Part shown: positions 2,375 through 2,400 of the stretch, in pieces
Position numbering within the stretch: the stretch's first letter is position 1
How the letters are laid out: the number at the start of each line of letters is the position of its first letter
Origin: a virus
Lineage: Duplodnaviria; Heunggongvirae; Uroviricota; Caudoviricetes
DNA length: 11,694 nucleotides
IMG/VR virus record: IMGVR_UViG_2671180437_000003
Coordinates: 1-11,694 of that record
Direction: 5' to 3' (one strand)
Program-made: the position numbers and the translations under genes
The notes under the pieces: model-generated
Told to the model about the DNA's origin: nothing
Databases searched by the model: none
The model's input: the letters and a program-made list of their open reading frames with translations, nothing else

Positions 2375-2400
2375 AACCGCTGCGGCGGTTTTTTTATTTT
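2375..2400 (+). terminator. Intrinsic-terminator-like hairpin plus T-run between terL and the capsid gene
   Basis: AACCGC (2375-2380), loop TGCG, GCGGTT (2385-2390), followed by a T-rich run to 2400; AGGAGG at 2402-2407 follows directly. Confidence 0.5.

Follow-up and report, generated by a model that had tools for sequence, protein, structure and literature searches.

Rho-independent terminators of the Gammaproteobacteria consist of a GC-rich stem of 5 to 9 pairs and a loop of 4 to 5 nt (often UNCG), followed immediately by 6 to 8 U residues, oriented with transcription and placed just after a stop codon. The hairpin described here, designated hp1, has the same build. It differs from the usual members of the class in that it does not close a transcription unit but lies inside an operon, with the next start codon ∼20 nt further 3′, and in being known here from sequence alone. 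The rplL-rpoB and rpsU-dnaG junctions carry intra-operon, attenuator-type terminators that constitutively lower expression of the downstream gene. Like these, hp1 is an intergenic hairpin with a U-run between two cistrons of one operon, but the genes 3′ of hp1 are the ones most highly needed, so constitutive attenuation is implausible.

Terminators that are overridden by Q proteins, such as tR′ of lambda, 82, 21, and the Stx phages, provide another comparison. hp1 is found in the same type of phage, in a late unit downstream of Q (as seen in prophage Sp10 of strain Sakai), and Q-modified polymerase presumably crosses it as it crosses tR′. However, tR′ adjoins the late promoter and its short transcript has been characterized (StxS; PMC7547250), whereas hp1 is located ∼10 kb downstream of Q in Sakai Sp10, between structural genes, is fused to a ribosome site, and has no known RNA product. 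ONT-cappable-seq has mapped leaky terminators within operons of LUZ7 and other phages (PMC9163698). There too, several signals lie within structural operons and are read through sequentially, but the phages concerned are lytic, differ in polymerase and regulation, and have no established link to an antiterminator, and none of their terminators has the cassette sequence described below.

The sequence analyzed (the window) comprises 11,694 nt (IMG/VR record IMGVR_UViG_2671180437_000003, positions 1 to 11,694) and stems from a long-tailed lambdoid prophage carried by pathogenic E. coli, covering packaging, head, and tail genes of its late operon. Sequence identity is 99.5% with PPompW and with Stx1a- and Stx2a-converting phages and 95 to 98% with Stx2c phages and BP-4795. 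Of 5426 complete E. coli genomes, 1252 contain the terL-capsid junction, and a single genome may have up to 7 copies of it. Every gene in the window is on the + strand. The small terminase gene terS (128 to 691) is followed by terL (688 to 2349; TAA stop at 2347 to 2349), the gene 5′ of hp1, which encodes the large terminase with Pfam TerL_ATPase and TerL_nuclease matches. The gene 3′ of hp1 (2413 to 4350; GTG start at 2413 to 2415) had been taken for a capsid gene in a sequence-only reading; it does encode an HK97-type major capsid protein (Pfam Phage_capsid), fused to an S78 prohead protease (Pfam Peptidase_S78) in a product of 645 aa. The remaining genes are a small open reading frame (ORF) ending at 4616, portal (4562 to 5926), an ORF of 299 aa (5923 to 6822) with no firm Pfam match and a weak, below-threshold match to CBM_5_12, head-tail connector (6819 to 7145), head completion (7155 to 7505), gp10-like (7502 to 7948), tail completion (7945 to 8289), major tail protein with tail tube Pfam matches (8348 to 9064), tail chaperones G (9079 to 9453) and T (9477 to 9758), and tape measure protein (9810 to past the end of the window). 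The product of the 299-aa ORF is 108 aa shorter than its Sakai Sp10 counterpart ECs_1975 (407 aa, annotated as "portal protein"), and the length of this protein is therefore variable. A slippery heptamer, A AAA AAG, is found directly 5′ of the TAG stop of chaperone G (9444 to 9453), with the T frame following at 9477 to 9758, which is the classic arrangement for a G/GT −1 frameshift.

A consensus scan found no sigma-70-like promoter on the + strand across the whole window, and polymerases that transcribe the capsid and tail genes therefore have to cross the hairpins described below. On the − strand the scan gave two promoter-like matches, one of them at 35 to 6, within the region 5′ of terS. 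The same region (positions 1 to 60, just 5′ of terS) contains three copies of ATGTTAAC/GTTAACAT, two direct (6 to 13 and 29 to 36) and one inverted (46 to 53), which from their sequence look like a recognition array for the terminase small subunit, of the cosB or pac type.

hp1 (GAACCGC-UGCG-GCGGUUU; 2374 to 2391, + strand) was recognized in the sequence, by a terminator consensus scan of the window that picked it up independently, by folding, and by covariation in relatives. Its stem has seven pairs (4 G-C, 2 A-U, and 1 G-U), formed by arms at 2374 to 2380 and 2385 to 2391 around a loop at 2381 to 2384, with a predicted folding energy of −10.7 kcal/mol (z = −3.4 to −3.6 versus shuffles). Directly 3′ of the stem is a U-tract of the form T7-A-T4 (2389 to 2400), made up of T residues at 2389 to 2395, the first three of which are in the stem, A2396, and T residues at 2397 to 2400. 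It is followed by the Shine-Dalgarno sequence AGGAGG of the capsid gene at 2402 to 2407 and the GTG at 2413 (2402 to 2415), the Shine-Dalgarno sequence being part of the 19-nt TTTTTTATTWTCAGGAGGC. The hairpin and T-run that the sequence-only reading had placed between terL and the capsid AGGAGG are thus borne out by sequence, scan, and fold; its GC-rich stem of 6 bp at 2375 was essentially right, although the stem has one more pair and starts one base earlier. A ribosome terminating on terL has a footprint that a distance of 24 nt past the stop clears, and hp1, which begins at that distance, would therefore fold free of it. A GC-rich stem of ∼5 to 14 pairs, a short loop, and a 3′ U-tract on the transcribed strand are what characterize Rho-independent terminators, and hp1 has all three. 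A larger fold, in which the ribosome site is paired with upstream CCCUG motifs (z = −2.45), was rejected because it is not kept in relatives.

Variation among close relatives leaves the hairpin intact. In ∼45 E. coli-type copies of hp1, substitutions changed the loop from UGCG to UCCG or UGUG, the A-U pair at the stem base to G-U, and the T-run from 7 to 6 residues, and none of them broke the CCGC/GCGG core.

hp1 is one of three such elements in the window. A scan with a loose consensus gave 10 sites in the whole window versus 9.8 expected, so that on this measure alone hp1 would not stand out. With strict criteria (at least 4 G-C pairs and at least 6 T residues in 8), exactly three sites were found on the + strand, at 2374 to 2391, 8310 to 8326, and 9772 to 9785, corresponding to hp1, hp2, and hp3. 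Shuffled sequences gave an expectation of 0.26 strict sites per strand, and three were reached in 1 of 200 shuffles. All three sites are intergenic, although intergenic DNA makes up ∼2% of the window, and three of the four operon gaps of at least 40 nt contain a hairpin with a T-run. On the − strand a single terminator-like hairpin passed the strict criteria (CGGCATCACCTTTTGCCG followed by ATTTTTT; 594 to 611), and it is antisense to terS, within the coding region of that gene.

Each hairpin has a Shine-Dalgarno site and start codon within 10 to 20 nt on its 3′ side, and the whole is referred to here as a cassette. The hp2 cassette (8309 to 8350, + strand), located in the 58-nt gap 5′ of the major tail gene, consists of AACCCGC-CGCGU-GCGGGUU (hairpin at 8309 to 8327; −10.6 kcal/mol), T6, ATTATC, AGGAGG at 8338 to 8343, and ATG at 8348. 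The hp3 cassette (9768 to 9812, + strand), in the 51-nt gap 5′ of the tape measure gene, consists of AAAACCUGC-UGUG-GCAGGUUUU (hairpin at 9768 to 9789; −12.5 kcal/mol, z = −4.1), T8 at 9786 to 9793, GGAG at 9798 to 9801, and ATG at 9810. A search for related loci with the major tail protein gave only relatives of at least 91% identity, which were used for allele variation. In these the hp2 stem is practically invariant, and hp3 (loci L174 to L253) occurs as two alleles with complementary stems, AACCUGC-UGUG-GCAGGUU and AACCGC-UGAG-GCGGUU. Their cores are CCUGC/GCAGG and CCGC/GCGG, respectively, and the second has approximately the same stem as hp1.

The hp1 and hp2 cassettes (2374 to 2415 and 8309 to 8350) share TTTTTTATTWTCAGGAGGC, 19 nt of T-run, spacer, and Shine-Dalgarno sequence, exactly, where 0.01 such identities are expected by chance. 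Either convergence on an optimal leader or exchange of sequence within the phage may account for the identity. In phages of ∼70% identity the capsid and major tail cassettes are unlike each other. TTTTTTATTWTCAGGAGGC precedes the genes for the two most abundant virion proteins, capsid and major tail, and this placement suggests a different function, in which the cassettes were selected for high yields of capsid and tail tube. The hairpin would lock away upstream RNA, keep a U-rich leader (a possible S1-binding enhancer) and AGGAGG open, and uncouple the capsid gene from the weakly translated terL. The third copy precedes the tape measure gene, which encodes a low-copy protein, and a U-rich leader would need no GC hairpin to function. 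Such a role is also compatible with termination and may simply coexist with it; as the main function of the cassettes we consider it unlikely.

A second possibility, that hp1 is the Hfq-binding terminator of a small RNA (sRNA) from the terL 3′ region, draws on the Hfq-bound sRNAs encoded in the late regions of EHEC prophages (PMC4104026, PMC13502914) and on a weak Rfam resemblance of hp2 to isrK and isrD. No Rfam family matched at the gathering threshold. With a relaxed threshold hp2 scored 24.7 bits against isrK (threshold, 50) and 22.7 bits against isrD (threshold, 37), and hp1 scored 11.4 bits against isrK; because these values fall well short of the thresholds and derive from the terminator itself, membership in an Rfam sRNA or leader family was rejected. 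In the hp2 region (8236 to 8332) the match to isrD extends 5′ of the terminator (UUCAACAGAAC). isrK and isrD are Salmonella island sRNAs; the resemblance is probably noise, but these sRNAs could be derived from phage intergenic cassettes of the hp2 kind. For hp1, the EcOnc table contains no Hfq peak near Sakai 1950280 (+), no promoter-like site is found upstream on the + strand, and the 24 nt between the terL stop and the hairpin contain several positions that vary among close relatives. An sRNA terminator is therefore highly improbable. Two known sets of sRNAs were also rejected as candidates at hp1, the Pas sRNAs of EHEC prophages, which are located near Q and the lysis regions, and HnrS/EcOnc10-12, which maps upstream of terS on the other strand.

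In order to follow the element over greater distances, 160 loci from bacterial genomes and viral contigs were collected by alignment of the protease domain, and the gene start was located in each. Among 117 distinct upstream regions, a hairpin with a T-run was found within 70 nt of the start in 69. Its presence followed the length of the gap to the upstream gene: 61 of 65 regions with a gap of 40 to 80 nt had it, and none of 41 with a gap of less than 40 nt did. As background, the + strand of these loci has 0.40 such elements per kb, i.e., ∼0.03 expected per 70 nt. Stems of unrelated sequence occupy the same position in Moraxella, Psychrobacter, Acinetobacter, Pseudomonas, Neisseriaceae, and others (for example, ACCGCC/GGCGGU, GCCACUU/GAGUGGU, ACCCACC/GGUGGGU, GCUCCGA/UCGGGGC, and ACCCUGC/GCAGGGU), so that structure rather than sequence is kept across homologous sites, as is typical of Rho-independent terminators. 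In all 57 distinct hairpin variants the T-run is 3′ of the stem on the coding strand, which fits termination rather than a DNA palindrome.

Pairing was evaluated by explicit pair counting in a MAFFT alignment of all 70 sequences with a gap of 40 to 90 nt. The named stem pairs were present in 90% of cells, with double changes at five of the seven pairs, in sequences that are related to one another and for a structure named from one member. The observed values were reached in 0 of 500 shuffles, and controls in which the positions were slid fell to 53 to 64%. RNAalifold predicted no structure from the same alignment because gap columns fall in the hairpin, and explicit counting was used for that reason. 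Taken together, these sequence comparisons establish hp1 as a conserved hairpin and U-run, predicted to act at the RNA level, with all the features of an intrinsic terminator. hp1 is real and clearly under selection; it is an ordinary kind of signal in an expected context that had not been annotated here before.

The same variants bear on whether the hairpins serve mainly in mRNA stability or processing. They could be barriers to 3′-to-5′ exonucleases, or 5′ stabilizers after RNase E cuts in the U-rich stretch, that divide the transcript into segments of differing half-life, with termination being incidental. RNase E usually acts on AU-rich single strands beside a stem, the context found here, and the hairpins are located at the boundaries between the terS-terL, head gene, tail-G-T, and tape measure segments. 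Furthermore, some Pseudomonas and Hydrocarboniphaga variants have a degenerate U-tract (UUCGUCGUUU) and keep the hairpin, and since such a tract would terminate poorly, this hints at a role beyond termination. However, an exonuclease barrier needs no T-run, yet almost every variant retains one of 6 to 8 residues that abuts the stem, always on its 3′ side. Cleavage within the U-tract would also strip the leader from the capsid message. We therefore regard stability or processing as a doubtful explanation for the hairpins, although one to be kept in mind.

The distribution of the element differs between host classes, here our own assignment of genera to classes. A hairpin with a T-run was present in 30 of 37 loci from Gammaproteobacteria, with four more having a degenerate U-tract, and in 3 of 4 from Neisseriales/Methylophilaceae. 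The counts were 2 of 25 in Alphaproteobacteria, where both look like chance matches, and 0 of 9 in Burkholderiaceae. In the relatives from these last two groups the start codon mostly comes directly after the terL stop, leaving no usable gap, and this arrangement suggests translational coupling. The contrast with these hairpin-less relatives is one that a role of the cassette in translation would also account for. So is the conservation of the spacer between hairpin and ribosome site (TTTTTTCGTTTCWGGAGG in Enterobacterales; TTCTCGTTTCTGGAG in Pseudomonas, Marinobacter, and Halopseudomonas), which is set against a sequence 5′ of the hairpin that is not conserved in distant relatives. Such a spacer is not needed for termination and counts against a function as a terminator only.

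Six Enterobacteriaceae phages with ∼70% protease identity were spot-checked over 10 kb past the capsid start, and the three-site layout recurred in all six. The first strict + strand site is 5′ of the capsid gene, the second is ∼6 kb downstream at a gene in the major-tail position, known by position alone, and the third is at the start of an ORF matching the tape measure gene of the window (sharing its N-terminus, MATLRE, in two of these phages). One extra strict site each is present in two phages. Stem sequences in the six are unrelated to those of the window, and the tail genes are partly different. Pseudomonas phage PAJU2 also has such a site in the 187-nt gap 5′ of its major tail gene. Most of the Enterobacteriaceae relatives of ∼70% identity (L136 to L167, alignment A3) have in addition an inverted repeat, TGAC-N6-GTCA, that overlaps the terL stop ∼20 to 45 nt 5′ of the hp1 position and is absent from the E. 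coli version.

The setting of the cassettes in fully read genomes points to antitermination. Sakai prophage Sp10 carries an hp1 identical to that of the window, and a Q-family antiterminator (PF06530, 33.7 bits; DUF1133) is encoded ∼10 kb upstream on the same strand, outside the region covered by the window itself. PAJU2, which has the hairpin and a lambdoid layout, likewise encodes a Q-like protein (58.1 bits) upstream on the same strand. In Burkholderia phage vB_SBP9 the hairpin is absent, a T7-type RNA polymerase is encoded, and there is no annotated Q. This association consists of two positive genomes and one negative, and host class, through terminator usage or GC content of the host, is confounded with it; the pattern is still what antitermination predicts. 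An antiterminator was not identified in Moraxella Mcat1, a poorly annotated genome, and a Q of the Sp10 type was found within 10 kb upstream in 3 of 80 phages of ∼70% identity, in which the flanks end in lysis genes (Pfam). In strain Sakai the module is carried by Sp10 and not by Sp15, the Stx1 phage, whose head is of another, lambda-like type.

Between its Q and holin genes, Sp10 has four more strong terminator-like hairpins on the + strand (L013, 2971 to 2990, 3891 to 3908, 4007 to 4028, and 6070 to 6098), and the Q-dependent late unit would therefore contain at least seven such signals. Lambdoid Q loads at the late promoter, far upstream of the structural genes. Of the suggestions in the sequence-only reading, an antitermination target is not supported if it means a loading site for the antiterminator, because hp1 would only be passed over; a terminator that an antiterminator overrides is, in contrast, the best reading, given the terminator features, the covariation, and the Q-type operon in fully read relatives. 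Q-modified polymerase is known to read through downstream terminators in Stx and lambdoid phages (PMC8065619, PMC7547250), and Term-seq of strain Sakai has been published (Sy et al. 2020, PMC7547250). We thus propose, with a probability of roughly 55%, that hp1 is an intrinsic terminator in a Q-dependent late operon, which stops unmodified polymerase and is overridden by Q in lytic growth.

The sequence-only reading had also proposed that hp1 sets the ratio of terminase to capsid transcripts, as a partial terminator at which a fixed fraction of polymerases stops during lytic growth. A virion requires hundreds of copies of capsid protein and terminase in catalytic amounts. Partial termination at hp1 would cut capsid mRNA relative to terminase mRNA, the opposite of what the virion needs, and the same logic fails 5′ of the major tail gene. 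The lambdoid context furthermore predicts nearly complete read-through by Q-modified polymerase. Thus, even though inefficient terminators that balance expression within operons have been documented in other phages (PMC9163698), it seems very unlikely that hp1 adjusts this ratio.

From the conserved features, the layout, and the presence of Q in hairpin-bearing relatives we infer termination at hp1, read-through under Q, and roles in gating and translation, which could work together as follows. RNA polymerase that has not been modified by Q would form the GC-rich hairpin in the nascent RNA, stall on the U-tract, and release the transcript ∼10 nt 5′ of the capsid ribosome site. Such release would keep the structural genes of the lysogen out of reach of stray transcription, whether it starts in morons or leaks past upstream terminators. 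After induction, Q-modified polymerase from the late promoter would cross all three signals and make one long late mRNA. In this read-through mRNA the folded hairpin may leave the U-rich leader and AGGAGG single-stranded and uncoupled from translation of terL, which would favor heavy, independent initiation on the capsid gene. That the hairpin is joined in a fixed, conserved way to the strong ribosome site and its U-rich leader suggests such a second role.

A broader proposal, which we offer tentatively and consider possible though well short of probable, is that the three cassettes form a conserved module with two jobs. The module would make synthesis of the capsid, tail tube, and tape measure proteins depend strictly on antiterminated polymerase, and in the read-through mRNA its hairpins would act as structural insulators that create open, U-rich initiation sites of high efficiency. 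It might be ancient, coinherited in the Q-using phages of this head family and lost from, or never present in, phages with another polymerase or regulation. Such a module would protect polylysogenic hosts from stray expression of structural proteins; that host defenses sensing these proteins are thereby not set off is a speculative further benefit.

The value added by these results is modest and consists of the conserved three-site layout, the exact repeat before the genes for the two most abundant structural proteins, and the difference from relatives that lack the hairpin. They introduce no new principle, but the cassette is a useful annotation landmark for module boundaries and a natural test case for combining a terminator with a strong ribosome site in long operons. 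Roughly one in four complete E. coli genomes contains the module, and among its carriers are EHEC phages of the Stx1, Stx2a, and Stx2c types. Should the hairpins indeed terminate transcription, expression of the structural genes, the production of particles, and the spread of toxin phages would need antitermination over more than 15 kb, and prophage remnants without Q would be transcriptionally sealed at the points where the hairpins are located.
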